Shown here: positions 1,023 through 61,412 of the stretch, one piece after another
Numbering within the stretch: position 1 is the stretch's first letter
How the letters are laid out: every line of letters starts with the position of its first letter
Assembly (NCBI RefSeq): GCF_056712565.1
Contig: NZ_CM160072.1
Length of the DNA stretch: 64,000 nucleotides
Direction: 5' to 3' (one strand)
The notes under the pieces: generated by a model
Told to the model about the DNA's origin: nothing
The model's input: only the letters and a program-made list of their open reading frames with translations
Databases searched by the model: none
Position numbers and translations under genes: made by a program

Positions 1023-1501
1023 AATCCGGGTACTCCGGCACGCTTCTCAGCGAGAAAATAGGCGCGGCTGTTAGCGTGAACATTGTCACTGGCGAGCAGT
1101 GCGTCCGGGGTCAGCCAGCGGTAATCGTCATGCTGCTCATCCGGCAGTAACAGATCTTCTTCAGCGACTCTGAAGCGAAAACCGAGCACCACATAGTGAG
1201 TGGTGAAATCCGTGCCGGAGAAGTTATCGTCATAAAAGTGCTGCCAGACACCGTAAAACTGGCCTACTGTTATCGGTAGACGCAGCCCCAGTTCCGCCAT
1301 CGTCAGCCGCTCAAATGCGGCTTCCAGCATTTCGTCTTTCTGCACGCGCCCTCCCGGCACAAACCAGTAACCCTGTGCCGGGCGGTTGGTTCTTTTGCCA
1401 AGCAGAAACTCGCCGCGACTGTTCTCGACAATAAAGTCGAGAGAGACAAGCGGTGTGGAGCGCACTACCGTGGCAAAGTCTTCCTGACGTAAAAACATCA
1501 T
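1019..1501 (-). CDS. gmm: GDP-mannose mannosyl hydrolase (Nudix), WcaH; true start may be the second Met (1498)
   Basis: 160-aa [35 protein letters not shown], Nudix-like; position between fcl and wcaI. Confidence 0.9.
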
Positions 1502-2466
1502 TACCCCCGAAAGCGGTCTTGATTCTCAAGGAACCACTGGTAAGTGCTGGCAAGCCCCGCTTCCAGTGAGATTTCGTGATACCAGCCAAGCTGATGCAGG
1601 CGCGTCACATCCAGCAGTTTGCGCGGCGTACCATCCGGTTTACTGGCATCAAAAACCACCCGACCTTTGTAACCCACCACTTTGGCGATGGTTTGCGCCA
1701 GCTCGCGGATAGTGCAGTCAACGCCCGTGCCGACGTTAATGTGCGACAGCATCGGCTGGGTGTTCTCCAGCCAGACTTCGTGCGCCAGCTCCATCACATG
1801 AATGCTTGCCGCCGCCATATCATCGACATGCAGAAATTCACGCATCGGTGTACCGCTCCCCCACACCACCACGTCAGGCGCATTCTGTGCCGTCGCCTCG
1901 TGGAAGCGACGCAGCAATGCTGGGATCACATGCGAGTTACTCGGATGGAAGTTGTCGTGCGGCCCGTACAGGTTGGTCGGCATGACCGAGCGGTAATCGC
2001 GTCCGTACTGGCGGTTGTAAGATTCGCACAGTTTGATCCCGGCGATTTTGGCAATGGCATAAGGTTCGTTGGTCGGCTCCAGCGTGCCCTGCAACAACTC
2101 GCTTTCTGCCATCGGCTGTTTTGCCAGTTTCGGGTAGATGCAGGACGATCCGAGAAACAGCAGTTTGTTCACGTCGTTCTGATGCGCAGCGTGAATGATA
2201 TTGCTCTCAATCATCATGTTCTGGTAGATGAAATCCGCCGGATAGGTGTTGTTGGCAACAATGCCGCCCACTTTCGCCGCCGCCAGATAGACCTGGTCAA
2301 TACGTTCGCTGGCAAAGAAATCATGCACGGCGCGGCTGTCCAGCAGGTTCAGCTCGTCGCGGGTGCGTAATACCAGTTCCACATCACCGCGCTGTTCGAG
2401 CTGACGCCTGATGGCGGAACCAACCATCCCACGATGGCCAGCGATAAAGATTCGTTGTTTACGCAT
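1501..2466 (-). CDS. fcl: GDP-L-fucose synthase (WcaG)
   Basis: 321-aa [27 protein letters not shown]-type N-terminus; follows gmd. Confidence 0.92.
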
Positions 2467-2468
2467 GT

Positions 2469-3590
2469 TTATGACTCCAGCGCGATCGCCACGTCGTAGC
2501 CGTGAGATTTCAGCAGAGAGTGTTTTTTCGCCGCTTCGAGGTCATTAGCCACCATTTCAGACACCATCTCTCTGAGGGTGATTTCCGGTTTCCAGCCCAG
2601 TTTTTCGTGCGCTTTGGTCGGGTCGCCGAGCAGCGTTTCAACTTCTGCCGGGCGGAAGTAACGCGGGTCAACGGCGATAATCACATCGCCCGGTTTAACG
2701 CCCGGCGCATCATGCCCGGTGACGGAAACCACAATGCCCTTCTCTTCAACGCCCGTGCCTTCAAAGCGCAGTTTGATACCCAACTGTGCCGCCGCCATTT
2801 CTACGAACTGACGCACGGAGTACTGAACGCCGGTAGCAATTACGAAATCTTCCGGCTGTTCCTGTTGCAGCATCATCCACTGCATTTTTACGTAGTCTTT
2901 GGCATGGCCCCAGTCACGCAGGGAATCCATATTGCCGAGGTACAGGCACGACTCCAGCCCCTGGGCGATGTTGGCGATTGCGCGGGTGATTTTGCGGGTA
3001 ACGAAGGTTTCGCCGCGGCGCGGGGATTCATGGTTGAAGAGAATACCGTTACAGGCGTACATGCCGTAGGATTCGCGGTAGTTAACGGTGATCCAGTAGG
3101 CGTACAGTTTGGCGACCGCATACGGAGATCGCGGGTAGAACGGCGTGGTCTCTTTCTGCGGAATTTCCTGCACCAGACCGTACAGTTCAGAGGTGGAAGC
3201 CTGATAGAAACGGGTTTTCTTTTCCAGACCGAGGAAGCGGATCGCCTCCAGCAGGCGTAGCGTACCCATCGCATCGACGTCTGCGGTATATTCCGGTGAC
3301 TCAAAAGAAACCGCAACGTGGCTCATTGCGCCCAGGTTGTACACTTCATCCGGCTGCACTTCACGCAAAATACGCGTCAGGTTGGAGGTATCACTCAGGT
3401 CGCCATAATGCAGATGGAATTTCGGGTTGCAGGTGTGCGGATCCTGATAAATGTGATCCACGCGCTCGGTGTTGAATGACGATGCACGACGCTTAATACC
3501 ATGCACCTCGTAACCTTTTTCCAGCAGAAACTCTGCCAGGTAAGAACCGTCTTGTCCGGTTACACCGGTGATGAGAGCAACTTTTGACAT
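2469..3590 (-). CDS. gmd: GDP-mannose 4,6-dehydratase
   Basis: 373-aa [34 protein letters not shown], classic Gmd N-terminus. Confidence 0.95.
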
Positions 3591-49482: not shown

Positions 49483-51930
49483 TTAACCGTCATGCATCAT
49501 GCTGGCACGGGCGCGCGCACGTTTATCCCGCTCGTATTTTTCGAGCGCATCCTGTAACTGGCGGTCAAGCTGTGTCCCCGGCGCAGTACCACCCGTCAGG
49601 CTGATGTGATATTCGTTTTTACTCTGGTCCACATAAGAGCGGCCAGCCGGTGCCGTGACCGGCTGATAAGCCTGATAGCCTGCATAAGAGCTGGTCGCCG
49701 GAATATAACCACCGGTGCCATACGTGGCGGCATGAGTTCTGGCGGCGGTCTGGTCAAGTGTGTCTGACTCTTTGTTGATAACACCGAGTTTTTCCAGTAC
49801 CCAGTCAATACCGCTGCGCAGTTTGTTGAACGCATTAAGCGGCAGCATCAGCGCGTCAGCCAGTGCCTGCCCGAACATGACGCCCGTGTCACGGCAACGG
49901 TTCAGGGTGTCCCGGGTGGCTTTAACCGGAGCAATCAGGTTTGTAAACCACTGCCACGCGGCCTGTAACTTTTCGCCCAGCCAGTCAAACACCGGCTTAA
50001 GTGGCGTGAACAGCTCCCCCACCGGCGCAAATGCCGCTTTCAGCCCTTCAACCACACCGCCAAAGAATGCGCTGACAGGCTCCCAGTATTTACGGATAAG
50101 CAACGCCCCGGCGACAATGGCAGCCACCACGGCCACAACCGGCCAGCTAATCGCCCCGATGGCCGTCATAACAGCACTGCCAACCGTCGTGAAGATTGCC
50201 CCCATTGCGCCTGCTGCCGCGATAATAGCATTGATGCCGGTGATAACCGGCCAGGCTACGAGGCCAATGGCACCAATGATGCCAGTCAGCGCCAGTGCAC
50301 CACCGGCAATTAGGCCAATGGTTAACGCCAGTGATTTGTTTTTCTGGATCCAGCCGTCGAGTTTTAACACATACTTTGTGGCCGTCTGCGTGAGCTTACG
50401 CAGTGCGCCTTCCTGCTGGTCAAACAGGTCAGTCCCCACCGCCTCATAAGCGGACTGAAACTCCTTAAAGTCACCGCCGAGGTTGTCCTGCATGATATTT
50501 ACCAGTTCTGCGGTCTTTCCGTCTGAGGCTTTAAACGCAGCGGTCAGTTTGTCCAGCTTTCCGGTTGAGGCGGCAGTCATCAGCACGGCGGCGGCTGAAC
50601 TGGCCTCCTCCCCGAAAATGGTTTTCATGTATTCAGCCTGCTGGGCAGTACCGAGCCGGTTTTTCTCAAAACTGGCCTGCATTTCTTTCAGAATGGTAAA
50701 TACTGGTCGGGTGTTTCCCTTACTGTCTGAGGTTTTCACACCAAGCTCTTTGAGTGCATCCCATGCTTTTCCCGTCGGTGCCTGCAGGCGGCTTAACACG
50801 GCACGGCTTCCCGTTCCCGCCATTGAACCGGTAATTTTTGCATCATGCAGCGCCCCGACCATTGCGGCTGTTTCTTCAATGCTGACACCGGCATTTTTTG
50901 CCACAGGTGCGGCATAGGTCAGCGCATCGCTCATACCGTCAAAATCGGCGGCGGTTTTGTTCATCGTCATGGAGAGAACATCCCCGATATGAGCGACCTT
51001 ATCGTTTGAAAGCTGAAAGGCGGATTTCATCCCCATCAGCAGGGCGGCGTTTTCTTCCATCGTGCGGCGGTTCGCCAGCGCCATATTCAGCGTGACCGGC
51101 GTTGCCGCCTGAATGGCATCAACATCCCCACCGGCTTTCGCAATGATAATCTGCGCACCGGCAGCATCATCCGCCGAGGCGGCTGTGTTGTCGCCGAGCT
51201 GGCGCGCCTGTTTGCGTAGCGCGGCCATTTCGGCAGAATCTTTTGCCACACCGAGCACGGCCTGTAATTCTGAGTTTTTCTGCGCAAACTCATAACCGGG
51301 CATCAGCAGCTTAACACCGGCCATCGTTCCCGCCGCCGCAATCCCCACACCGGCAGCGCCCACTGAGGCCATATTTCCGGCCAGTTCCTTTCCGGCCTGA
51401 TAACGCTGTTTGACTGCGTTAAGTTTTGCCTGTTGCGCACTGACACGCGCCAGCGCGTCACGCTGCCGGTTAAGCTGGGCGGTGGTTTCACTGATACGGT
51501 TTTTCAGTCCCTGCTCATCATGTGCAAGATTGCGGGTATTAATTCCCACAGCGGCCAGTTCCCGCTGCTGGCGTTTAACGGAATCTGTCAGGCGGTTATA
51601 TTTCGCCTGTAAGTCCTCCGCCGCACGCTTTGCGGATTCCAGCACTTTCGCCTGAGCACGGGTCGGGCGTTCGGTGTTTTTAAACTGTGTGGCAAGGGCT
51701 TCGGCCTGCTGCCGTGCCTTTTCAAGTGCATGACCAGTCACGGCGAGCTGTGCACTGGTCTTGCGGAATCCCTCAATACGGGATGCGTGACCGTTCAGCT
51801 CGCGCAGTGATTTTTGTGTTTCCCGGATATCCCCCGACAGCAACTTACTCGCTGTGCGGATGGATTTAAACGGGCGGGACGCCTGGTCAACAGCCCTGAG
51901 CAATACCTGTAATTTTACATTGTTACTCAT
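49483..51930 (-). CDS. T: P2 gpT-like tail tape measure protein
   Basis: 815-aa ORF, coiled-coil N-terminal half, Gly/Ala-rich hydrophobic segment. Confidence 0.9.
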   Translation of the reverse strand: MSNNVKLQVLLRAVDQASRPFKSIRTASKLLSGDIRETQKSLRELNGHASRIEGFRKTSAQLAVTGHALEKARQQAEALATQFKNTERPTRAQAKVLESAKRAAEDLQAKYNRLTDSVKRQQRELAAVGINTRNLAHDEQGLKNRISETTAQLNRQRDALARVSAQQAKLNAVKQRYQAGKELAGNMASVGAAGVGIAAAGTMAGVKLLMPGYEFAQKNSELQAVLGVAKDSAEMAALRKQARQLGDNTAASADDAAGAQIIIAKAGGDVDAIQAATPVTLNMALANRRTMEENAALLMGMKSAFQLSNDKVAHIGDVLSMTMNKTAADFDGMSDALTYAAPVAKNAGVSIEETAAMVGALHDAKITGSMAGTGSRAVLSRLQAPTGKAWDALKELGVKTSDSKGNTRPVFTILKEMQASFEKNRLGTAQQAEYMKTIFGEEASSAAAVLMTAASTGKLDKLTAAFKASDGKTAELVNIMQDNLGGDFKEFQSAYEAVGTDLFDQQEGALRKLTQTATKYVLKLDGWIQKNKSLALTIGLIAGGALALTGIIGAIGLVAWPVITGINAIIAAAGAMGAIFTTVGSAVMTAIGAISWPVVAVVAAIVAGALLIRKYWEPVSAFFGGVVEGLKAAFAPVGELFTPLKPVFDWLGEKLQAAWQWFTNLIAPVKATRDTLNRCRDTGVMFGQALADALMLPLNAFNKLRSGIDWVLEKLGVINKESDTLDQTAARTHAATYGTGGYIPATSSYAGYQAYQPVTAPAGRSYVDQSKNEYHISLTGGTAPGTQLDRQLQDALEKYERDKRARARASMMHDG

Positions 51931-52406: not shown

Positions 52407-52925
52407 TCACAGGCCGATATTGCGGCGGTGTTGCTCCAGCCGGTCGACGCCGTTCACCTTCTCAATCATGTTGATGGTGTCGATTTCGACCAGCTCCTTA
52501 CCGTCCATCGTCAGCCGGAAATAGGTGCAGACCACGGAGATTTTCGACTCGGTGTCTTCTCCCTGTTTGCCCTCGCCGGTGTCGATTTCTTTCTGACGTC
52601 CACGCATGACCACCTCGACGGCCACCGTTTCGCCGGTATCGTCGCGCTGGTAAGAGCCTGCAAAACGAATCGGTACGGAATCCACACCGGTTGCGGCGTA
52701 AAGCTCCCAGATAACCGAATCCGGGAAGCCACCGAGCGACCACTCCATTGACAGCGCATCGTCATCAAGGCCGAGGTCTACCGGTGCGCTGCCGTTCATC
52801 CCCGCACCGCGATAGTTTTCGAGCTTACGGGTCAGTTTTGGTAGCGTGACGGACTTCGCGACGCCCTGATAGCTGTAGCCGTTCAGAAAGACGTTCATTA
52901 ACTTGAGTTTGCGCGGCATTGCCAT
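52407..52925 (-). CDS. FII: P2 gpFII-like tail tube protein
   Basis: 172-aa ORF MAMPRKLKLMNVFLNGYSYQGVAKSV. Confidence 0.9.
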   Translation of the reverse strand: MAMPRKLKLMNVFLNGYSYQGVAKSVTLPKLTRKLENYRGAGMNGSAPVDLGLDDDALSMEWSLGGFPDSVIWELYAATGVDSVPIRFAGSYQRDDTGETVAVEVVMRGRQKEIDTGEGKQGEDTESKISVVCTYFRLTMDGKELVEIDTINMIEKVNGVDRLEQHRRNIGL

Positions 52926-54130
52926 CGGTCAGGCTCCTTATAATTGCTGTTAACCGAGGTGACCAGATTTGCCAGGTATTTATCGGTAATACGCTGGCGC
53001 AGGGTCAGGTTTTCAAGAGGAGGCACCGGTGTATAGTCGTAGTCGATATACAGTTTTCCGGCCTTGAGGGTTTCCGCATCGTTGGATTCTTCGCTGAACC
53101 AGCAGGTCGCATCCACGATATAGCCGTTTGTTTTCAGCTCACGGAATTTGGCATTGATGCCGTCAACGATGTCGCGAATCAGCGTTGCGGTGATGGGCTT
53201 GTCCACCGCCCACATGTGCGCCTCAGCCATCGTGTCAGCCAGTACCTGCGCGGTGCGGGTGTAGTTTTCAAAGAGGAACAGCGGGTCATCAGAGCAGGTA
53301 CGGTTACCCCAGAATCGGAAACCGTCGCGGCGAATCAGCGTAGTGACGCCTGACTCGTTAAGCAGGTCAGCATCGGTGCCGGACTCCTGCAAATCCCAGA
53401 ATACAGATGCGCTGATGCCGGTAACACCGTTTACCCCGACGTTGGACAGCGTTTTATGCCAGCCCTGCTCCTGGTCGATTTTAGCGCGCAGACCCAGCGC
53501 ACGGGCGGTGGCATACGCGGTAGCGGTGGTACTGGTGACCGTATCCCATGCGAGGAAATCCGGCCAGATGACCATCAGCTCACGCTGGCTGAAATTCTGG
53601 CGGTAGGCTTTCACCTCGGAAATGGTCTTACAGCCCCATGCGCTGATATATCCGAAAGCGCGCAGCTTCTGACAGACGGATGCCAGTGCAACAGCCACCT
53701 CTTTGGTATCCAGTCCCGGCACACCGAGAATACGCGGTTTAACACCGGTTACCGACTCCGCCGCCAGCAGGGCTTTTAGTCCGGTGTACTGACCGTTTTC
53801 GTCGGTGGTGCCGATGATATTGGAAACGGTCTGCGCGAGTTTCGTTTCCTCGTCATCACCGGTGCAGTCTTCCACGCGCACGACAACGGTGACCGGTTTT
53901 GACTGGTCAGCGATGGCCTGCAACGATGCCGCCAGCGTGCCTTTTTTACCGGCCTTTGCAATTGCGCTTTGCACATTGGTAATCAGCACCGGTTTATTGA
54001 GGGGGAAGGTTTCCGCATCCGCATCGCTGGCCGTGCAGACCATGCCGACAATGGCAGTGGATACGGTGGAAATGACGCGGGTGCCGTCGTTAATCTCCAG
54101 CACCTGCACGCCATGATGATAGTCACTCAT
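52898..54130 (-). CDS. FI: P2 gpFI-like tail sheath protein
   Basis: 410-aa ORF MSDYHHGVQVLEINDGTRVISTVSTAIVGMV. Confidence 0.9.
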   Translation of the reverse strand: MSDYHHGVQVLEINDGTRVISTVSTAIVGMVCTASDADAETFPLNKPVLITNVQSAIAKAGKKGTLAASLQAIADQSKPVTVVVRVEDCTGDDEETKLAQTVSNIIGTTDENGQYTGLKALLAAESVTGVKPRILGVPGLDTKEVAVALASVCQKLRAFGYISAWGCKTISEVKAYRQNFSQRELMVIWPDFLAWDTVTSTTATAYATARALGLRAKIDQEQGWHKTLSNVGVNGVTGISASVFWDLQESGTDADLLNESGVTTLIRRDGFRFWGNRTCSDDPLFLFENYTRTAQVLADTMAEAHMWAVDKPITATLIRDIVDGINAKFRELKTNGYIVDATCWFSEESNDAETLKAGKLYIDYDYTPVPPLENLTLRQRITDKYLANLVTSVNSNYKEPDRWQCRANSS

Positions 54131-54220
54131 CCGTTTAACTCCGTGGTTAATGGGTACAACTATTTTCTGTTGTGCAGAGCATAAGACGCTATTTGACCTG
54201 GCTGGTCAGTGGATGAAACA

Positions 54221-54253
54221 ACAGATAAAGAAAAGGCGGGCAATTCGCCCGCC
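54221..54253 (-). terminator. Intrinsic terminator on the minus strand, upstream of the FI promoter region
   Basis: Hairpin ggcgggc-aatt-cgcccgcc with a T-rich tract on the minus strand (ttttctttatctg). Confidence 0.55.
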
Positions 54254-54316
54254 TGTCCTGATTTGTACTCACTCATTTTCCGCCTGACAATTTACATAGC
54301 CCAAATGCTATCAAAC

Positions 54317-54334
54317 CTGACAGTCTGCTTTGAG
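54317..54334 (+). repeat. Copy 1 of ~16-bp motif CTGACAGTCTGSTYTG (ctgacagtctgctttgag)
   Basis: Shares a 13-mer with copy 3 and an 11-mer with copy 2. Confidence 0.7.
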
Positions 54335-54460
54335 CGAAAAGTGGACATTAGAGTTACAAAAGCAAGTTTAAATCATCCAAAATATTACAATGTCCTTATC
54401 TATCTGATATCGTTATGATAAAAAGCTCCTGAATATAATCGATAGTAGGTGGTTATTTCC

Positions 54461-54838
54461 ATGAAATCAATTTTAGAGGTCTTTACTCAAGGAAATACTA
54501 AAGAAAAACTGGCTGTTATCGCCGATCTCACAACCATTGCGGGAATATCGATTGCAACTATTATTGCTGGTTTGTTAACCCTAGTTGCAAAAACAGATAA
54601 ACTAGATGTTGGAAATCTGTTTGGAGTTGTCATAATATCTCTGCTCGGATTGGCTGGTGTTTGCTGTTTTGTGGCCTTATTTATTTGGGTTATAACCCAA
54701 ATGTCTAAACCATGGGGAACACCTCGGGGGGTTCAGCCCTTAGTTAAGTGTGCTATTTCCCTTATCTTTATCTGTATGTTTTTGCTGGCTGTCTTTACAT
54801 TTTATGAGTTTATTTCTTCGATGAGCATACGCTATTGA
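54461..54838 (+). CDS. Small three-TM-helix membrane protein of unknown function (prophage cargo)
   Basis: ORF 54449..54838; ATG at 54461 (MKSILEVFTQGN); three hydrophobic helices; AT-rich; convergent with the recombinase gene. Confidence 0.5.
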   Translation: MKSILEVFTQGNTKEKLAVIADLTTIAGISIATIIAGLLTLVAKTDKLDVGNLFGVVIISLLGLAGVCCFVALFIWVITQMSKPWGTPRGVQPLVKCAISLIFICMFLLAVFTFYEFISSMSIRY

Positions 54839-54860
54839 ATATAAAATCAGCCCCCATAAC

Positions 54861-55547
54861 TTAAAAGAGACCTTCTATATCGACTTCAATGCCCAAATAA
54901 CGGACTGTGCTTTCCAGTTTCTTATGGCCCAACAGAAGTTGGATCACCCGGAGACTCTTGGTTTTCTTGTAGATTAAGTAAGGTTTTGTTCTTCTCATGG
55001 AATGTGTGCTGTACAGCGAATCTTCGAGACCAAGCTTTTCTACCCACCCATGAAAAATTCGGTTGTATTGCCGGGTTGATATATGGTGGTTAGTTCCGAC
55101 CCGAGAGCGGAACAGGAAGCCTTTACTATGCCAGTTGCCGAGCTTTATCAATGCAGTAACCGCTTCCCTTGTCCCTTTGGTTATCTCAAATTGGACAGGG
55201 CTGCCGGTTTTCTGTTGCAACACCGTTGCTCTGCTTGAGACAGAACTGCCATATGCAGCATCTGATACTTTGAGTTTGACCAAATCACAGCCCCGTAGCT
55301 TAGTGTCCAAAGCCATGTTGAACAGAGCTAGATCGCGTGTTTTACCTTCCAACTCAAGTCTAATCCGGATCCCCCAGATATGAAATATCTGAAGTGGCCT
55401 TTTTTGACCGATGGTACGGTCTTTATTCCACGGTGACGTTTTCATATTCAAATCTCCTGCAATGTGGGAGATTTGAGTATGGTTGTCTCTCAAGAGCGAA
55501 AATAAGTCAACTATCACTAGTTGTTGCGCATGTACGTATTCTGTCAA
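54861..55547 (-). CDS. Short tyrosine-type site-specific recombinase (catalytic domain with only ~50-aa N-terminal extension)
   Basis: 228-aa ORF with the tyrosine-recombinase motif series: R in DTKLRGCDL, HSMRRT (H-x-x-R), LLGH, Y in TVRYLG; starts 4 nt after the stop of the upstream 280-aa gene. Confidence 0.6.
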   Translation of the reverse strand: MTEYVHAQQLVIVDLFSLLRDNHTQISHIAGDLNMKTSPWNKDRTIGQKRPLQIFHIWGIRIRLELEGKTRDLALFNMALDTKLRGCDLVKLKVSDAAYGSSVSSRATVLQQKTGSPVQFEITKGTREAVTALIKLGNWHSKGFLFRSRVGTNHHISTRQYNRIFHGWVEKLGLEDSLYSTHSMRRTKPYLIYKKTKSLRVIQLLLGHKKLESTVRYLGIEVDIEGLF

Positions 55548-56291
55548 TTAATTATTGACAATCATCAATTCTGGAATGATCAAAATCATCATATCGAATT
55601 ATAGTCTGGTTGACTGTATCTATTGTTGGTGTCATTTCTGTTATAATATCCTGATAACCTAAAGAGTTAAATACATTTACTAAGGCCTCACACCGAAGGG
55701 CCGTAGCAATTACAAAATTATAAATTGCCAGCCGTTTATTTTCTTGTTTAACTGCAAGAATGAATTCGATAGCAGTATTTTCATCACTTTGGATTGCATT
55801 ATATAGAGATACTATATTTACCATATCATCAGAGAATGTATGTATTGAATCACAAAGGGGAACGTAATGGGCATGATAGTGTGTTTCCCAGCCAATTAAT
55901 TCAAAAAGTCTTCTGGTTCCTGGATATTCAGGTGTATTTGGCCACAATCTATTAAATAGATCAGTTAGTTCTTTTCCCATGCGAATCCTTTCATTTGCTG
56001 CTGGATTAGTCATTCCTTTGGATTTTAAACACTCCAGCCACCGTTTTCCATTACTATGAACTAATTTCTTACTAGCCTTGAGTAATGCTTGTGCATTTTC
56101 GCCATCATCTATTGCTATATAAAATTGATTGGCAGCCTGTTCTATTATAACCCTAGCTAATACTTCCGATGCTGAAAAGGCTCCTATATTCAAAGAAGAG
56201 ATAGCCTGATTACTAAGTTCATTCAGTACATTAAAGTACTGTAAGACCATCAATTTTTGTTCCACACCCTTTAGGTTGTCTGGATTTGCCC

Positions 56292-57197
56292 CTATATTTC
56301 CAGACACCTGTTATCACTTAACCCATTACTGGCTTGCTGCCGTAGATATTCCCGTGGCGAGCGATAACCCAGTGCACTATGCGGATGCCATTCGTTATAA
56401 TGCTCGAACGCCTCTGCAAGGTTCTTTGCTGCCGTTAACCCGTCTGGTTTGGGCATGACACTGATGTAGTCACGCTTTATCGTTTTCACGAAGCTCTCTG
56501 CTATGCCGTTACTCTCCGGACTCCGCACCGCCGTGCTCTTCGGTTCAAGCCCCAACATCCGGGCAAACTGCCGTGTTTCATTAGCCCGGTAGCATGAACC
56601 ATTATCCGTCAGCCACTCTACTGGAGACGCCGGAAGCTCGTTGCCGAAGCGGCGTTCCACCGCTCCCAGCATGACGTCCTGTACTGTTTCACTGTTGAAG
56701 CCGCCCGTAGTGACCGCCCAGTGCAGTGCCTCACGGTCACAGCAGTCCAGCGCGAACGTGACTCGCAGTTTTTCTCCGTTATCACAGCGGAACTCGAACC
56801 CGTCAGAGCACCATCGCTGATTACTTTCTTTCACAGCCACTCTGCCTGTATGTGCCCGTTTCGATGGCGGTACAGCAGGTTTTCGCTCAAGCAACAGCGC
56901 ATTCTGGCGCATGATCCGGTAAACACGTTTGGCATTGATCGCAGGCATACCATCAAGTTCTGCCTGTCTGCGAAGCAGCGCCCATACCCGACGATAACCA
57001 TACGTGGGCAGCTCTCCGATAACATGGTGTATACGGAGAAGCACATCCGTATCATCAGTGTGACGACTGCGGCGGCCATCCATCCAGTCATCGGTTCGTC
57101 TGAGAATGACGTGCAACTGCGCACGCGACACCCGGAGACAACGGCTGACTAAGCTTACTCCCCATCCCCGGGCAATAAGGGCGCGTGCGCTATCCAC
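56292..57197 (-). CDS. insD: IS2 transposase OrfB (InsD, DDE catalytic domain)
   Basis: 301-aa [41 protein letters not shown]. Confidence 0.9.
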
Positions 57198-57520
57198 TTT
57201 TTTGCCCGTCCATATTCAACGGCTTCTTTGAGGAGTTCATTTTCCATCGTTTTCTTGCCGAGCAGGCGCTGGAGTTCTTTAATCTGCTTCATGGCGGCAG
57301 CAAGTTCAGAGGCAGGAACAACCTGTTCTCCGGCGGCGACAGCAGTAAGACTTCCTTCCTGGTATTGCTTACGCCAGAGAAATAACTGGCTGGCTGCTAC
57401 ACCATGTTGCCGGGCAACGAGGGAGACCGTCATCCCTGGTTCAAAGCTCTGCTGAACAATTGCGATCTTTTCCTGTGTGGTACGCCGTCTGCGTTTCTCC
57501 GGTCCTAAGACATCAATCAT
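57155..57520 (-). CDS. insC: IS2 OrfA (InsC, HTH); fused to OrfB by -1 frameshift in the 57155..57197 overlap
   Basis: ORF 57155..57565; start set at [26 protein letters not shown]. Confidence 0.85.
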
Positions 57521-57768
57521 CTGCTCTCCAATGACTAGTCTAAAAACTAGTATTAAGACTATCACTTAAATAAGTGATATTGGTTGTCTGGAGATTCAGG
57601 GGGCCAGTCTATTGTCTATTTTATTTTTATGCTCCTCAAATTTTGCATGGATATATTTATTTATCGCGGCTATTTTTTTTACATCTTCGTCAAGATCAAA
57701 CGGGCAACGTCCAAACAATTCTTTTTTCATATATTTCTCCTGTTGTACAAGCTTCCATAAGTTGGCAG

Positions 57769-57774
57769 ATTATA
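57769..57774 (-). promoter_or_regulatory. Candidate sigma70 -10 hexamer (TATAAT) ~40 nt upstream of the 280-aa gene start
   Basis: Plus-strand attata at 57769..57774; no clear -35 identified. Confidence 0.3.
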
Positions 57775-57962
57775 CACTGAAGATTACCTATAAATAGCTG
57801 TGCGGGATAGCAGATCAGTGCAAGAAGTACAACCAAGTGAACTGTGCGTATTCAGATACCTGGCCTAACGTTCGCGATAGCCGTCCCCTGCACGAAGCCA
57901 TATATTAGATGTATTAGCTCAGACCTTATCTGACAGGTTGAGTAGGTAGAATCTAATCAAAG

Positions 57963-57980
57963 CTGACAGTCTGGTTTGGA
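57963..57980 (+). repeat. Copy 2 of the motif (ctgacagtctggtttgga), same orientation as copy 1
   Basis: Direct repeat of copy 1; together they bracket the whole cargo module. Confidence 0.7.
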
Positions 57981-58080
57981 CTGTGAGTTCAACCGATGGA
58001 TGCAACACACAGCGATCTACGGACATTACTAGCATAGCTGTGTATTAATCATCGGGAAGCAGGTCAGTCCGCTCCTAGCA

Positions 58081-58096
58081 CAGAGCAGACTGTCAG
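58081..58096 (-). repeat. Copy 3 of the motif, inverted (minus strand reads ctgacagtctgctctg)
   Basis: Inverted relative to copies 1 and 2; 102 bp from copy 2; sits in the loop of a 10-bp perfect stem (58076..58085 with 58108..58117). Confidence 0.7.
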
Positions 58097-58151
58097 ATTA
58101 GGCTTTACTCTGTGCTATAGATACGTTAGCTCACTCCAGAGATCATACAAC

Positions 58152-58679
58152 TTATTGCGGCATTTCCGGCCATTCAGGATTTGCAGGATCCACACGGCTG
58201 ACCAGAACACTGTAGCGTTCCCATGCTTCCAGTCGGCTACGCTCCTCATCTGTTGCCATATTCAGTCTGACAGAGCGTTCCAGTGGCTGAATGATAGTTT
58301 CAGCTTCGGAAAGCAAAGCTGACTTCTGTAATTCCGCCAGTTGCAGCTGTTCGTCTGCCGTATAAATCCGCTTAATCACGGCACCATCCTTAAACATCCA
58401 TTTACCTGAGTCATCAGCACGTCGGTTGGCGGTAATATCAGGAACCTCGACAACGCTAAAACCTTCAGGGTTGAGCGTTGAAGCATCTCTGGTGATGCCG
58501 ACAATTATATTATTCTCATCGTAAACAATCTTTATCGTGTCTTCCTGAAAATTACTTACTTCCTCATACCAGTTTTTTCCCTCTTCGGACCATAACCAGA
58601 TAACATCAAAATTTTTTGTCAGTTGATATTGGGCAACAGTTTTTGGATTACCCGCAGTAATATTTTTTAAATGCTGCAT
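58152..58679 (-). CDS. G: P2 gpG-like tail fibre assembly protein
   Basis: 175-aa ORF immediately downstream of the tail fibre gene. Confidence 0.85.
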
Positions 58680-58682
58680 AAA

Positions 58683-61412
58683 TTACACCTGTGCGACGTT
58701 ATACCATGTGCCATTGATGTATTTTTGTATTGGTCTGAATACTGCGGGGTCATCACCATCGACTTCACCGACAATACCAAGCCCGGTAATTACGTGCCCT
58801 GCTTTCTCATACATCACCCCTTTCTGCATGGTCTGGACAACACGTGTGCCAAGTCTGACATCTCTCACATAGCGGGAATCAAAGTTACCGTAATCCGAGG
58901 GATTAACACGCCCCGTAATATTTATGGTTTTATTACTTTGAACGCTTCCGGAGACAAAGCGCATAACATGGACGCTATTAGCATAAACATCCAGATTACC
59001 ATCACCATTTTGTTTAAAGCCCGTGTCATTATCACCCAAAACAATCGAATTACCGCCAAGAGCACTGGATGTTCCTATACCCAGAGCACCATTCAATTGA
59101 CCACCAGATAACGGCAGTGCACCGACATCTCCCGCTGTAGGTTTTCGCGTTGTGGTATAAAACTCAGACCAGTCAGCCTCGAATCCGTAACCGTCACGAG
59201 CAGAACGATAAAAAATACCACCGTTCTTATAATTAACGCGAAACTGGGCGGCGGGACAACTTCCTTCCCCGATATTAAAATGAAGAATTAACGTTGATGC
59301 CCCACCAATAGTTGCGTTATAGGCTCCGCTACTCCAGTTCCATCCAACGGCTTTATCATTCGCAACGGTGTCTCCTGTTTTTCCTGAAGCAAATGCACCA
59401 ATATTTTTCGGCGTCAGGTTAATATCTGATGTTCCATCAAACGAAACGTTATTAATTTTACGGGCTGTTTTCAGCTTTGTTGCTGTCGCCGCATTGCCGG
59501 ACAGTTCACCAGAAAGGCCAGCACTGAATGTCTGTTTCGCGCCCCATGTCTGGGCTTCGTCGATAATTGGCACACGTCTTGTCGTGATCGTGCGGCTTCC
59601 CGGATTTCCTGAAATACGCACCATAAAAAAGCGGTAGTTGGCTTTACTTACAGTGCTGCGCCATACATGCATTGAGCGTCCCGAACCAGAATCATCACTC
59701 GGACCGACTGAGATGTTTATCAGGTTGCCATCAATGACGCCCCAGTCCATACCGTCGGGAATATTGGTCATGTTATCCAGCCGAACGGTTATCAGACTGC
59801 CCGGCACAAAATCGTATGTCTGCCAGTCCAGGCTGGTGAGTTTTGCCACTGCGCCACCGATACCCAACTCTAACGGCAAAGAGTTTGAGTTATAAATCTG
59901 TCGCCACTCCCCCCACGCGTTAAATGAGCCACCAAGAAACACTCGCTCATATAAACGGTCTTTTGTAGCTGCGCTGGTTCCTGTGGTCGTGTAACGTTGC
60001 AAAACATAGACACCATCCTTGCGCCTGATGACTTCCAGAAAACCAGACTGCCCCTGGATTGGGGTGTGGGTCGCTTTGCCTGTCACACTGTAAATACCTG
60101 GAGACATCAAATCATCCAGGTCATCCTCATAGAAGGTACTACTGGTCTGATAACCAATTTGGATCCAGTCTTCCCACTGTGGATTTTCTGCATCCCATTT
60201 GGCTGTCAGGCCGCGAATATACATAGTCCCGTTACGGGTTGTATAACGCTGTGTGCGTCCATATAGCCCACCTTCGAAAATTTCCAGAATGCCCTGCGCG
60301 TCTCCTCCCTGCTCGGGGTAATGTCGTTCAAAAGAAGCTATTGCTGAACTGCTGTTTCTCCATAGACCTAAATGTTCTGCGCCACCGAGAGAGTTAAGGT
60401 CAATGGTCGTACTTAGAGCTCGCGTTACAGCCTGAACATGGCGCCATGCTCCCCATGGTCCATCATTACCATTCCATGTTCCAATGAGTTTGCGGATATA
60501 CAAATTTCCGTCACGTGTGGTATAGCGTTGCGTGCCTGCAAAATTGCCGCCAGTAAAAACCTCAAGCACACCGACAGCATTATCTTCAGGGAAGTTTTTC
60601 TCCAGTGTTGCGTTGGTGGACGTTGCTTTAGACCAGATACCTGAATAAGCCTTAACAGAACCAAACGTATTCAGATCAGCATCAACCGGCATTTCGCCAT
60701 TGTTTTTCATAAACGTCAGGCTGGTAACGCCAACATTGTCCAGAAAAGCTGATTTATCCTGGATATCTGCACCATTCTGATTTTTCGCCAGACGTGAATT
60801 TGCGTTGTCATTTGCTGCCTTGACCGCTTTTGGCGTTGCTGCCAATGACTCACTGGTGCTGTTTGTTGCACTGCTTAACTGAGTAAAACCTTTTTCTGTC
60901 AGCGTGGCGTCAGGATGGCGGCGGGACTGCTCATGCTCTGCGATTTTGTCATCGACGTAATCCTGCGTCGCCATCACTGTGCTGGCATCAATACTCAGCT
61001 CAACGGACGCCACGTTACTGACAATAATAACCATGCGGCAGGTCTGCGCACGCCCGGAGCCTTCAGCCAGTTCTGGCTTATAGCTTTCAGCCATGTTGGA
61101 TACCGCAATCAGTGTTCCGGCATCGTCATACAGACCAAGCTCACGCATCCAGAAGCCGCCCACTTCGGGCGGTACAACCAGTTCAGCCACGATATAGTTT
61201 TTATTCTTGTTATCCACGCTGACTTTATTCAGAGCGTGACGCCAGACCTCATGCACCAGTTTCGTCTGACCGGCATCCGGCACCGGCAATTTGCCATTAC
61301 CGTCACCCACGGCCATTGCAGACAGGGTTACTTTTTTCCCGCCGGGGACAGTGGCGGCTGCCAGCTTTGCGGCTCCGGCAGTAGTGATAACGGTTTTAAA
61401 TTTCGTGCTCAT
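58683..61412 (-). CDS. H: P2 gpH-like tail fibre protein (long variant, 909 aa)
   Basis: N-terminus MSTKFKTVITTAGAAKLAAATVPGGKKVTLSAMAVGDGNG is P2 H-like; extended Gly/Thr/Ser-rich distal region. Confidence 0.85.
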   Translation of the reverse strand: MSTKFKTVITTAGAAKLAAATVPGGKKVTLSAMAVGDGNGKLPVPDAGQTKLVHEVWRHALNKVSVDNKNKNYIVAELVVPPEVGGFWMRELGLYDDAGTLIAVSNMAESYKPELAEGSGRAQTCRMVIIVSNVASVELSIDASTVMATQDYVDDKIAEHEQSRRHPDATLTEKGFTQLSSATNSTSESLAATPKAVKAANDNANSRLAKNQNGADIQDKSAFLDNVGVTSLTFMKNNGEMPVDADLNTFGSVKAYSGIWSKATSTNATLEKNFPEDNAVGVLEVFTGGNFAGTQRYTTRDGNLYIRKLIGTWNGNDGPWGAWRHVQAVTRALSTTIDLNSLGGAEHLGLWRNSSSAIASFERHYPEQGGDAQGILEIFEGGLYGRTQRYTTRNGTMYIRGLTAKWDAENPQWEDWIQIGYQTSSTFYEDDLDDLMSPGIYSVTGKATHTPIQGQSGFLEVIRRKDGVYVLQRYTTTGTSAATKDRLYERVFLGGSFNAWGEWRQIYNSNSLPLELGIGGAVAKLTSLDWQTYDFVPGSLITVRLDNMTNIPDGMDWGVIDGNLINISVGPSDDSGSGRSMHVWRSTVSKANYRFFMVRISGNPGSRTITTRRVPIIDEAQTWGAKQTFSAGLSGELSGNAATATKLKTARKINNVSFDGTSDINLTPKNIGAFASGKTGDTVANDKAVGWNWSSGAYNATIGGASTLILHFNIGEGSCPAAQFRVNYKNGGIFYRSARDGYGFEADWSEFYTTTRKPTAGDVGALPLSGGQLNGALGIGTSSALGGNSIVLGDNDTGFKQNGDGNLDVYANSVHVMRFVSGSVQSNKTINITGRVNPSDYGNFDSRYVRDVRLGTRVVQTMQKGVMYEKAGHVITGLGIVGEVDGDDPAVFRPIQKYINGTWYNVAQV

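Follow-up and report, generated by a model that had tools for sequence, protein, structure and literature searches.

Among the main reservoirs of anti-phage systems are the P2-like prophages, which carry them at two hotspots (Rousset 2022, PMC9122126). No mechanism has so far been given for the way in which near-identical phages gain dozens of cargos at nucleotide-precise junctions. The subject here is a non-coding tract between the tail gene G and a cargo gene in a 64,000-nucleotide stretch of DNA (the window). An initial annotation placed this tract at 57780..58151 and considered that it might be a structured 5' leader or sRNA, a cluster of recombination sites, or a decayed remnant of the ancestral Z/fun gene. 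Its statement that no ORF of at least 60 aa lies within these limits on either strand is correct: only ORFs of 38 aa and 44 aa are contained there, and a TTG-initiated ORF of 61 aa ends at 57797. However, the start had to be moved, and the true non-coding tract is 57731..58151 (421 bp), with a -10 box and a ribosome binding site (RBS) in 57731..57779. All local genes are on the minus strand, and the cargo gene (ATG at 57730) does lie downstream of the tract on this coding strand, as had been stated.

Lying after tail gene G, the tract forms the left junction of the cargo hotspot of P2 and consists of three parts: a P2-backbone repeat (58067..58151), a block of cassette-borne relics (57906..58066), and a promoter and 5' UTR (57731..57905). 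The initial annotation recorded neither the conserved P2 backbone that makes up the first 85 nt nor the IS2 element that splits the cargo gene. Listed along the minus strand, the features are as follows.

58152..58679, minus strand: tail-fibre assembly gene G, a 175-aa ORF and the last late gene before the cargo slot; context, outside the tract
58067..58151, minus strand: LIR (left inverted repeat) of the P2 Z/fun cargo slot, from P2-backbone homology and GenBank annotation
58067..58090, minus strand: G-type core GTCTGCTC-TGTGCTAG-GAGCGGAC (8-bp arm, 8-bp spacer, 8-bp arm; 24 bp), with 16/16 arm positions matching the consensus
58025..58066, minus strand: module A, a 42-nt cassette-end module recognised by motif match, set in inverted orientation between the arm of the LIR and the left arm that follows
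57969..58024, minus strand: variant or split C-type core, GTCCGTAG + ATCGCT, 32-nt module B (57979..58010), CA + AACCAGAC, from alignment with P2 RIR-type sites
57906..57968, minus strand: module C, a TGTCAG accessory block (TGTCAG, about 25 nt, CCTGTCAG, TGAGCTAATACATCTA) homologous to the sequence after the P2 right boundary site
57731..57905, minus strand: putative promoter and 5' UTR of the DUF5677 gene, with TATAAT at 57769..57774, the RBS GGAG at 57737..57740 and a 19-nt indel at 57891..57909

The LIR is 87-92% identical over 84-87 nt to P2 and 69 other P2-like phage records, and the GenBank feature underlying the match is a "left inverted repeat" (AJ512676-AJ512683; P2-EC46, P2-EC58 and others). 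It directly follows the stop of gene G (58152), as expected of the P2 Z/fun left repeat; gene G itself is annotated as tail fiber assembly protein in an identical prophage of E. coli ATCC 11775. Positions 58067..58151 are thus the element described by Nilsson, Karlsson & Haggård-Ljungquist (2004), in the same place after G. The repeats were annotated in GenBank as 113-nt and 91-nt features, without the core, and a role of the Z/fun inverted repeats in site-specific recombination had already been put forward (Nilsson 2004, according to the summary in PMC8987985). The inverted partner of the LIR lies before gene FI (54314-54346 against 58067-58099, 79% complementary), with variable cargo between the two. 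The right boundary comprises two features.

54262..54346, minus strand: RIR, from repeat search and junction alignment, with the C-type core GTCCACTT-TTCGCTCA-AAGCAGAC (54323..54346) and a TGTCAG accessory block; annotated "right inverted repeat" in AJ512680 and AJ512683 and located before gene FI
54234..54254, minus strand: intrinsic terminator between the RIR and the FI promoter region, found by scan and conserved in all P2-like records aligned

This terminator-like site of the operon (54254..54234) lies beyond the cargo. The G-type core is also present in P2, EC46, EC58, a Klebsiella plasmid and chromosomal arrays, and the tract contains one full and one variant copy of this 24-bp arm-spacer-arm palindrome. 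When six cargo types were compared, they diverged at the same nucleotide, directly after GAGCGGAC on the left and before GTCCGCTC on the right. In IMG/VR the 65 left boundaries have 43 distinct cargo ends and the 54 right boundaries have 38, always directly after the cargo-proximal arm.

Because the tract sits where P2 holds Z/fun, it was reasonable to ask whether it is what decay has left of that gene. However, tblastn with both P2 Z-locus proteins gives a best E of 29 in the tract and 2.2 in the whole slot, and the only match to P2 in blastn is the 85-nt backbone repeat. Moreover, the parts of the tract beyond the first 85 nt travel with DUF5677 into contexts other than P2-like phages, so the tract is not a Z/fun remnant; this origin is refuted at the sensitivity of the searches used, and we give it next to no chance.

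A lambdoid prophage of E2348/69 contains the sequence from 58066 onward, together with the DUF5677 gene and a downstream recombinase gene, at about 90% identity, and the same unit is near-identical in a Buttiauxella chromosomal array. Homology to the Buttiauxella copy starts inside the G-type core, where the right arm is identical and the left arm and spacer differ. The junctions between unrelated DNAs fall at or within core sites. Among E. coli genomes with this cargo, 53/53 have the same arrangement and no recombination event was seen.

The cargo and its surroundings comprise three further features.

55552..57730, minus strand: DUF5677 cargo gene, split by IS2 (Pfam PF18928, E = 8e-10)
55485..55508, minus strand: C-type core with its left arm replaced (GACTTATT-TTCGCTCT-TGAGAGAC), 63 nt upstream of the recombinase gene
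54861..55445, minus strand: small tyrosine recombinase of 194 aa, catalytic domain only (PF00589, E = 9.6e-18)

The IS2 copy, which inactivates the DUF5677 gene in the window, occupies 56281..57611 inside it and is flanked by a 5-bp target duplication (GACAA); an intact gene (280 aa) is present in E. coli ATCC 11775. The PF00589 match of the recombinase scores 65 bits (cutoff 27.1), the sequence shows the R...HxxR...H...Y motifs, and the RefSeq name is tyrosine-type recombinase/integrase. Every NCBIfam family compared with it stays below its cutoff, and its C-terminus is altered relative to 200-aa homologues, of which WP_001752951 is an example. Upstream of the DUF5677 gene, TATAAT and the RBS are unchanged in three cassette copies. 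The consensus -10 box, as the single promoter element recognised, suggests a putative promoter for this gene; a scan for a canonical -35 element found none. A retron, DRT or ToxIN-type ncRNA upstream of a defence gene was considered and dropped, as the cargo is DUF5677 plus a tyrosine recombinase and has no PADLOC match.

The roughly 160 nt between the LIR and the promoter (57906..58066) are relics of the same site family and part of the cargo cassette. The reverse complement of module A (ATTACTAGCATAGCTGTGTATTAAT...) matches a common cargo-end motif, RTTRNTAACAKC...TGTTAAT, that lies beside arms in IMG/VR loci. The module adjoins cores upstream of the recombinase in five loci (L020, L021, L025, L027 and L079) and also follows a RES-toxin gene in a Klebsiella plasmid. 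The inner C-type core can also be parsed as TTGAACTC-ACAGTCCA-AACCAGAC at 57969..57992; pKP187 and a P2 remnant also contain the TTGAACTC variant, again preceded by GTGTGTTGCATCCATCRG. Between cassette copies, conservation is highest in this region (94%). The inner variant core of the tract may be dead. Module C forms a 49-nt direct repeat, 71% identical, with 54284..54332; a motif search returned 2 matches against 0 expected, and copies are found in Klebsiella plasmids and an E. coli island.

The initial annotation described the tract as dense in hairpins, naming three inverted repeats, and this holds only in part. One of the three exceeds chance and is conserved.

58076..58117, minus strand: 10-bp stem with a 22-nt loop carrying CTGACA, from repeat search and shuffles

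This perfect stem (tagcacagag/ctctgtgcta) is found, as reported, at 58076..58085 and 58108..58117. It is unusual, since shuffles of the 421-nt tract contained a perfect stem of at least 10 bp with a loop of 3-40 nt in only 3/300 cases, the median stem being 6-7 bp. The perfect stem is kept in 30/65 IMG/VR copies from P2-like phages; the variants include one compensatory A-T/G-C position and several one-sided or breaking changes. Its minus-strand 3' arm consists of the last part of the G-type core's left arm and the spacer, and the stem as a whole is the G-type core spacer paired with a complementary copy 22 nt upstream. In contrast, the 6-bp stem acagtc/gactgt and the 7-bp attagat/atctaat repeat are at chance level. 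The 6-bp stem is lost in homologous copies elsewhere, and one arm of the 7-bp repeat lies inside the 19-nt indel segment (57891..57909) that is missing from the E2348/69 copy. The 10-bp stem was ruled out as an intrinsic terminator by its 22-nt loop and the lack of a following T-run, and a scan of the tract for intrinsic terminators (short GC-rich hairpin, 3-8 nt loop, T-run) found none.

Could the tract nevertheless be a structured 5' leader or sRNA that regulates the DUF5677 gene or acts in trans? Several observations would agree with this. The cargo gene follows the tract on the coding strand, and the RNA fold of the whole tract is mildly better than shuffles (z = -2.26; 3/100 shuffles equal it). 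Between two cassette lineages the block 58013..57912 is conserved (94%) about as strongly as codon positions 1 and 2, whereas third positions reach 88.6%, and several LIR stem variants are G-U compatible on the minus strand. However, the fold score is modest, and an Rfam 15 covariance-model scan of 54000..59000 gave no match in 57731..58151 even at E <= 10. The likely -10 box (57769..57774) is downstream of every hairpin, so that none of them would belong to the 5' UTR of the gene itself. The block with the strongest conservation is a DNA repeat, whose homologues precede an opposite-strand gene in three other replicons; the 6-bp stem is lost in those copies, and a long hairpin between modules A and B is absent wherever module B is missing. 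An RNA function of this kind, as first suggested, is therefore improbable.

A shorter unit recurs across these contexts. A 22-nt TGTCAG-flanked motif was rejected as the recombinase site, as it is absent near three plasmid recombinase homologues (90-94%); therefore the shorter arm-N8-arm core, which is present there, was preferred. We aligned 16 sites as one arm-N8-arm family, whose settings are P2 boundaries, the interior of multi-gene Z loci, plasmids of Klebsiella, E. coli and Kosakonia, and E. coli islands. Searches with the pattern GTCYGCTY-N8-RAGSRGAC returned 223 strand-hits in 828 kb of recombinase loci compared with 4 in shuffles, and the cores are strongly enriched in the recombinase loci of 30-odd Enterobacterales species. 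In 30 distinct Enterobacterales upstream sequences, conservation rises from 0.37 to 0.75-0.93, and the step falls exactly on a C-type core that lies 63 nt ahead of the recombinase ATG, so that this core forms the sharp upstream edge of the conserved recombinase unit in 30 distinct loci. Among 82 sites compared with the direction of the recombinase gene, 41 are C-forward, 34 G-forward, 1 C-reverse and 0 G-reverse. Where adjacent sites are less than 100 nt apart, the distance is 41-43 nt in 10/12 cases, which reveals composite C-linker-G junctions between cassettes of 0.5-4 kb. Such a junction reads GTCCGCTY-CTCGCTCA-CAGCGGAC, an 18-nt linker, and GTCCGCTC-YGTGCCAG-GAGCGGAC. Each cassette has a G-type site on the left and a C-type site on the right. 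Strains with arrays include Pseudocitrobacter, Rahnella, Salmonella diarizonae and E. coli ATCC 11775. In recombinase loci of the Marinobacter clade there is a boundary at ATGTYCGCTTTGCGAC, yet no arrays with either arm pattern were found.

These results fit the reading of the tract as a recombination-site cluster, the one of the three early suggestions that has stood: the palindromes bound the P2 cargo slot and also separate cassettes in recombinase-associated arrays. Judging by sequence, we consider it rather probable that the tract combines a recombination junction with a promoter downstream of it, and that the cores are crossover sites at which cassettes would be exchanged. The sites were compared with those of serine invertases (hix/gix/cix) and Xer recombinases (dif/cer), using their consensus sequences, and both were set aside on inspection, as half-site spacing and sequences differ.

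The same sites might instead mark a passive boundary of the hotspot, with cargo swapped by homologous recombination through G and FI, which can proceed without any recombinase, and with the palindromes forming hairpins of the REP/BIME kind between independently expressed morons, where they would insulate, terminate transcription or stabilise mRNA. The LIR and RIR are blocks of 85-110 nt conserved in P2-like phages and could provide homology arms. The cores, GC-rich 8-bp stems that enclose an 8-nt loop, are intergenic like REP elements and could act as RNA hairpins or insulators. In addition, the recombinase is present in only 2/120 IMG/VR loci bearing these boundaries (118/120 P2-like loci have sites without it), so it would usually have to act in trans, and no rearranged variants were seen. 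Several features are difficult to reconcile with such a boundary, however. Homology breaks at the same nucleotide across a P2-like phage, a lambdoid prophage, a plasmid and a chromosomal array, replicons without common flanking genes. The polarity of the sites follows the recombinase gene almost without exception (75 forward, 1 reverse), whereas terminators and REP elements would need none. A core coincides with the exact edge of the recombinase unit in the 30 contexts, and the hairpins have no T-run. We regard a purely passive boundary as unlikely, although it is the alternative to which we give most weight.

On the reading of the cores as crossover sites, they would probably be used by small tyrosine recombinases consisting of the catalytic domain only, one member of which is encoded 2 kb downstream in the same cargo. 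One recombinase subunit would bind each of the two inverted 8-bp arms, and strand exchange would take place in the 8-bp spacer, with staggered cuts of 6-8 bp predicted at its edges. Save for 2/8 positions, the spacers of G and C sites are reverse complements, and because of this mismatch the G and C sites that flank a cassette should not recombine together. Exchange of G with G and of C with C between molecules would swap a cassette, while exchange of G with G or C with C between neighbouring slots would excise a cassette as a circle. Site-specific exchange of this kind would explain near-identical P2 backbones with dozens of cargos and nucleotide-precise junctions.

A different use of the same enzyme would be a fimS-like switch, in which the recombinase flips the roughly 100-bp segment between the G-type core and the inner C-type core to control cargo expression. 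The two cores are mutually inverted and about 45-100 nt apart, and the recombinase is the size of FimB/FimE and weakly matches the NCBIfam family of tyrosine-type DNA invertases (22.9 bits, cutoff 222). However, neither the segment nor the whole cargo is inverted in any of 53 full-length E. coli copies, E2348/69 or Buttiauxella. The left half of the inner core is degenerate or split, the consensus -10 box is outside the segment, and the spacers of the two cores differ at the 2/8 positions noted above. An invertible switch is thus highly improbable.

Comparison with known systems places the arrays near several of them. As in integrons, a tyrosine recombinase gene stands beside a primary site where variable DNA joins, cassettes of 0.5-4 kb are separated by composite, imperfectly palindromic junctions of about 66 bp that are all co-oriented with the recombinase, and the cargo is rich in defence- or toxin-type genes. 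Unlike integron integrases, the recombinase is about 194-200 aa and has no IntI-specific features; against integron-integrase models it scores 18.3 bits (NF011946, cutoff 435) and 18.2 bits (TIGR02249, cutoff 265). The sites are 8-8-8 double-stranded palindromes rather than R''/L''-L'/R' attC hairpins, and inspection of array junctions revealed no attC-type cores (RYYYAAC/GTTRRRY). Moreover, the cassettes are bracketed by two different inverted site types and carry genes in either orientation with their own promoters, and the recombinase lies inside the array and is co-directional with it.

In recombinase-mediated cassette exchange (RMCE; Cre/lox, Flp/FRT), inverted heterospecific sites block excision and inversion and permit a double-crossover swap. 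The present cassettes would be alike in lying between inverted sites with partly mismatched spacers; they differ in belonging to a natural system, in which exchange is inferred. FimB/FimE and fimS are similar in the size of the recombinase (about 200 aa, catalytic domain only) and in having inverted short sites near a promoter, but differ in the sites and in the array organisation; no orientation variants were seen here, and the invertase match is far under its cutoff. In the pdif/dif modules of Acinetobacter plasmids, XerC/XerD sites flank discrete modules that are thought to be mobile by site-specific recombination (PMC12907356). Here, too, accessory modules lie between inverted short core sites in many replicons. 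However, the cores (GTCCGCTC-N8-GAGCGGAC) show no likeness to the 11-6-11 structure of dif, and the enzyme associated with them is a small recombinase of their own, not host XerCD.

The sites tie the P2 hotspot to a widespread cassette-array system with its own small recombinase that is apparently undescribed. In the searchable literature on site sequences and comparable systems, a scope to which the 2004 paper does not belong, we found no account of the arm-N8-arm core, the G and C spacer types, the link to the small recombinase or the chromosomal arrays. As a tentative and broader proposal, which we hold at somewhat less than an even chance, Enterobacterales may possess an integron- or RMCE-like cassette system not previously described. 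It would consist of a tyrosine recombinase of about 200 aa and heterospecific inverted 8-8-8 G and C sites that bracket cassettes, with 66-bp composite junctions in chromosomal arrays. It would move defence, toxin and other accessory cassettes between chromosomes, plasmids and prophages of the P2-like and lambdoid kinds, and would drive cargo turnover at the P2 hotspot. Should the small recombinase family act on the G and C cores, this turnover would be directly testable with one gene and two 24-bp sites. The cores would also be a simple sequence signature for cassette arrays, and hence for new defence and toxin genes, in Enterobacterales chromosomes and plasmids, and the system could offer a compact natural tool for cassette exchange. 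For annotation, the appropriate label for the tract is recombination junction plus promoter, rather than pseudogene or sRNA. A third match to the core pattern in the window, at 50432..50455, is a coincidence, as it lies in conserved coding sequence inside the tape-measure gene.

The locus is the variable-cargo site between genes G and FI of a P2-like prophage, known as the Z/fun slot. The minus strand is that of all relevant genes, and these are arranged in the order H, G, a cargo region of approximately 4 kb, sheath FI and tube FII.

58683..61412, minus strand, tail fibre H
58152..58679, minus strand, tail-fibre assembly G
57730 (start) to 55552 (end), minus strand, DUF5677 cargo gene, interrupted by IS2
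56281..57611, complete IS2 (1331 bp), with a 5-bp target duplication GACAA at 57612..57616 and 56276..56280
54861..55445, minus strand, tyrosine recombinase, 194 aa (PF00589)
54449..54838, plus strand, predicted membrane protein, 129 aa, between the recombinase gene and the right repeat
52898..54130, minus strand, sheath FI

The DUF5677 gene is inactivated in this prophage by IS2, which is inserted after codon 39. An identical prophage without IS2 is present in E. coli ATCC 11775, where the gene is intact and encodes 280 aa. Given this intact copy and the start at 57730, the non-coding tract is 57731..58151 (421 bp), which retains the right end proposed in the initial annotation and moves the left end from 57780 to 57731. 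As had been observed, no ORF of at least 60 aa occurs within it. The 129-aa membrane-protein ORF has no match in Pfam or PADLOC and is missing from the cassette copies in E2348/69 and Buttiauxella.

Three inverted repeats had been noted in the tract. The 10-bp perfect stem is present at 58076..58117 as described, and a perfect stem of this length arose in only three of 300 shuffles of the tract. The 6-bp and 7-bp repeats are unremarkable, because the median longest stem in the shuffles is 6–7 bp; moreover, the 6-bp stem is lost in homologous copies, and a 19-nt indel missing from a sister copy includes one arm of the 7-bp repeat. The whole tract folds slightly better than its shuffles (z = -2.26), and an Rfam scan, suggested as a check on a structured RNA, gave no match for the tract. 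The initial annotation had also considered a decayed remnant of Z/fun. A tblastn search with both P2 Z-locus proteins gave no match, and the evidence is against such a pseudogene because 58066..57731 (336 nt) moves with the cargo, recurring jointly with the DUF5677 and recombinase genes in three further contexts.

The left repeat, which forms the first 85 nt of the tract, is P2 backbone and already known. In blastn against phage records only query positions 1–85 (58151..58067) match, at 87–92% identity, to P2 itself and 69 other P2-like records. The equivalent sequence is annotated "left inverted repeat" in AJ512676-83, with a "right inverted repeat" before FI; its inverted partner in the window is located at 54314..54346. 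According to a review (PMC8987985), the original paper proposed that the P2 Z/fun repeats enable site-specific recombination. When six cargo types are aligned, all diverge at one common nucleotide on each side, directly after ...GAGCGGAC on the left and directly before GTCCGCTC... on the right. The sampled IMG/VR contigs show 43 distinct cargo ends at 65 left boundaries and 38 at 54 right boundaries, always directly after the arm. Each slot boundary can be divided into two 8-bp arms in inverted orientation and, between them, an 8-bp spacer.

58090..58067, minus strand, left boundary core, G-type: GTCTGCTC-TGTGCTAG-GAGCGGAC
54346..54323, minus strand, right boundary core, C-type: GTCCACTT-TTCGCTCA-AAGCAGAC

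The two kinds of spacer are here called G-type (YGTGCCAG) and C-type (YTCGCTCA); at six of eight positions the former is the same as the reverse complement of the latter. Read from G to FI, P2-like slots present the G-type core first and the C-type second, which is the polarity of the recombinase loci, and some have composite junctions inside. The 10-bp stem consists of the left-arm end and spacer (CTCTGTGCTA) paired with a complementary copy 22 nt upstream, and its loop contains CTGACA. Among P2-like contigs the stem is mostly conserved in sequence; its variants include a single A-T/G-C position that is compensated, some G-T intermediates and some changes that break the pairing, and so do not prove that the hairpin itself is under selection. 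The sequence at 50432..50455 (GTCCGCTTATGAGGCGGTGGGGAC) also fits the arm-N8-arm pattern but sits within the tape-measure gene; many P2-like phages share it as conserved coding sequence, so its resemblance to a core is a coincidence.

Homologues of the recombinase occur on plasmids at 90–94% (tblastn), and a scan of species-representative genomes yielded 80 loci. In 30 distinct contexts from Enterobacterales, in which the DNA further upstream is unrelated, conservation ahead of the gene stays at a background of 0.37 up to -66; at the C-type core at -63 it is 0.75 in the left arm, 0.85 in the spacer and 0.91 in the right arm, and 0.93 beyond. An arm-N8-arm scan of the recombinase loci (828 kb) gave 223 strand-hits versus four in shuffles. 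Taking the direction of the recombinase gene as forward, 41 C-type and 34 G-type sites are forward, one C-type site is reversed and no G-type site is. Ten of the 12 adjacent-site spacings below 100 nt are 41–43 nt, representing a composite junction of C-core, 18-nt linker and G-core, and the segments between such junctions are 0.5–4 kb long and contain one to three ORFs, which may face either way. Several Enterobacterales chromosomes (loci L024, L026, L038, L079 and others) contain arrays of one- to three-gene cassettes with 66-bp composite junctions, all co-oriented with the small recombinase gene and with a linker that often starts CTTCAG.

The unit comprising 58066..57731, DUF5677 and the recombinase is found in a lambdoid prophage of EPEC E2348/69 (L014) at approximately 90% identity, in a tRNA-Ser island (L015) where it is cut off by an IS, and, near-identical to the window, in a chromosomal array of a Buttiauxella MAG. 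Homology between the latter and the window starts within the G-type core, of which the right arm GAGCGGAC is identical and the left arm and spacer differ; a complete C-type core lies 16 nt upstream of the core in this position. The E2348/69 cassette (4440..8700 of L014) follows the lambdoid replication genes, has a frameshifted recombinase and is followed by an AAA ATPase and HNH endonuclease pair, an arrangement shared with the tRNA-Ser island. On K. pneumoniae pKSB2_6C_1 (L006), a 44-kb linear plasmid record, a G-type and a C-type core, each flanked by TGTCAG, lie on either side of a 1.5-kb segment with a single gene (1130..2669), in the architecture of the P2 slot.

The cores form a family of polar 24-bp palindromes that mark, to the nucleotide, where variable DNA is joined. 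The gene for a small tyrosine recombinase is associated and co-oriented with them, and one and the same cassette is located at such cores in three replicon kinds. The main rival explanation is a passive boundary at which the palindromes are REP-like hairpins; this leaves unexplained the strict polarity, why a core marks the edge of the recombinase unit and how replicons without flanking homology come to share junctions. In a recombination model, the recombinase would bind the arms and exchange strands within the spacer. Between neighbouring slots, G x G or C x C exchange would release the cassette as a circle with a composite junction, a logic similar to that of integrons. Between molecules, G x G exchange coupled with C x C exchange would swap cassettes, much as in engineered cassette exchange with heterospecific sites. 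An invertible switch has evidence against it, and the spacer difference at two of eight positions would block G x C inversion or loss. Neither the core architecture with its two spacer types nor the composite junctions, chromosomal arrays and recombinase association were found described in the searchable literature, which largely excludes subscription journals; their novelty is provisional, since the search covers few such journals and not the key 2004 paper on the repeats.

Sequence comparison places 58066..57731 within the cargo, with the following parts.

58066..58025, module A (42 nt), reverse complement ATTACTAGCATAGCTGTGTATTAAT...
58024..57969, inner C-type site: left arm GTCCGTAG and ATCGCT, 32 nt, then CA and right arm AACCAGAC
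57968..57906, TGTCAG accessory block, homologous to sequence beyond the P2 right boundary
57905..57731, minus strand, putative promoter and RBS stretch, with a consensus TATAAT at 57769..57774 and a GGAG RBS

The reverse complement of module A is a motif common beside the cargo-proximal arm in other cassettes. The module itself also adjoins cores ahead of the recombinase gene in five further genomes and occurs 3' of a RES-toxin gene on a Klebsiella plasmid. The inner site may alternatively be parsed as TTGAACTC-ACAGTCCA-AACCAGAC; this variant, with the same GTGTGTTGCATCCATCRG before it, is also present in plasmid pKP187 and a P2 remnant. Module A and the sites on either side of it, the G-type core and the inner C-type site, together resemble a nearly empty slot ahead of the DUF5677 unit; in this prophage the G-type core looks intact and the C-type site is probably a relic.

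A plasmid search with 57731..58066 returned 928 records (816 from Klebsiella), a count that may reflect one common plasmid backbone; matches to the tract are 45–100-nt pieces at 80–90% identity. Pieces of the block are also found in variable E. coli islands. At three dispersed plasmid or island loci such pieces are followed by a gene on the other strand, which argues against the structured 5' leader proposed initially, and the evidence is likewise against an sRNA. The TATAAT and GGAG elements are invariant across three cassette copies. We only infer a DUF5677 promoter, because a consensus scan gave no good match to a -35 box. Identity between the P2-like and lambdoid copies is 89.9% in non-coding sequence, 94% in the conserved block, 92.2% in coding sequence and 88.6% at third codon positions, a pattern that is weak evidence of constraint.

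The recombinase gene is present in only two of 120 IMG/VR loci, so in most phages the enzyme would have to act in trans. In Yersinia phage vB_YpM_50 (YpM50; L016 3900..3990) the right junction has a C-type core and then the leader hairpin of the recombinase gene with its first ~20 nt, joined directly to the terminator; this is a deletion relic of a recombinase formerly in that slot. In a Marinobacter clade (L084-L097, 56% recombinase identity) upstream conservation starts at a related but different boundary motif, ATGTYCGCTTTGCGACC; no cassette arrays were detected at these loci, which carry isolated palindromes GTTCGCTT-N8-AAGCGAAC. This hints that arms may co-vary with recombinase clade.

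The recombinase RBS and ATG lie inside a 15-bp hairpin at 55442..55482 (CATACTCAAATCTCC / GGAGATTTGAGTATG), whose conservation in approximately 30 Enterobacterales homologues suggests translational control. Homologues, which are 200 aa long, have the C-terminus ...GIEVDDALEISESIEV, with a GGGCTGC/GCAGCCC hairpin after it. In the window the 194-aa protein ends ...GIEVDIEGLF (54861..54900), and comparison indicates that the 3' end of the gene is rearranged.
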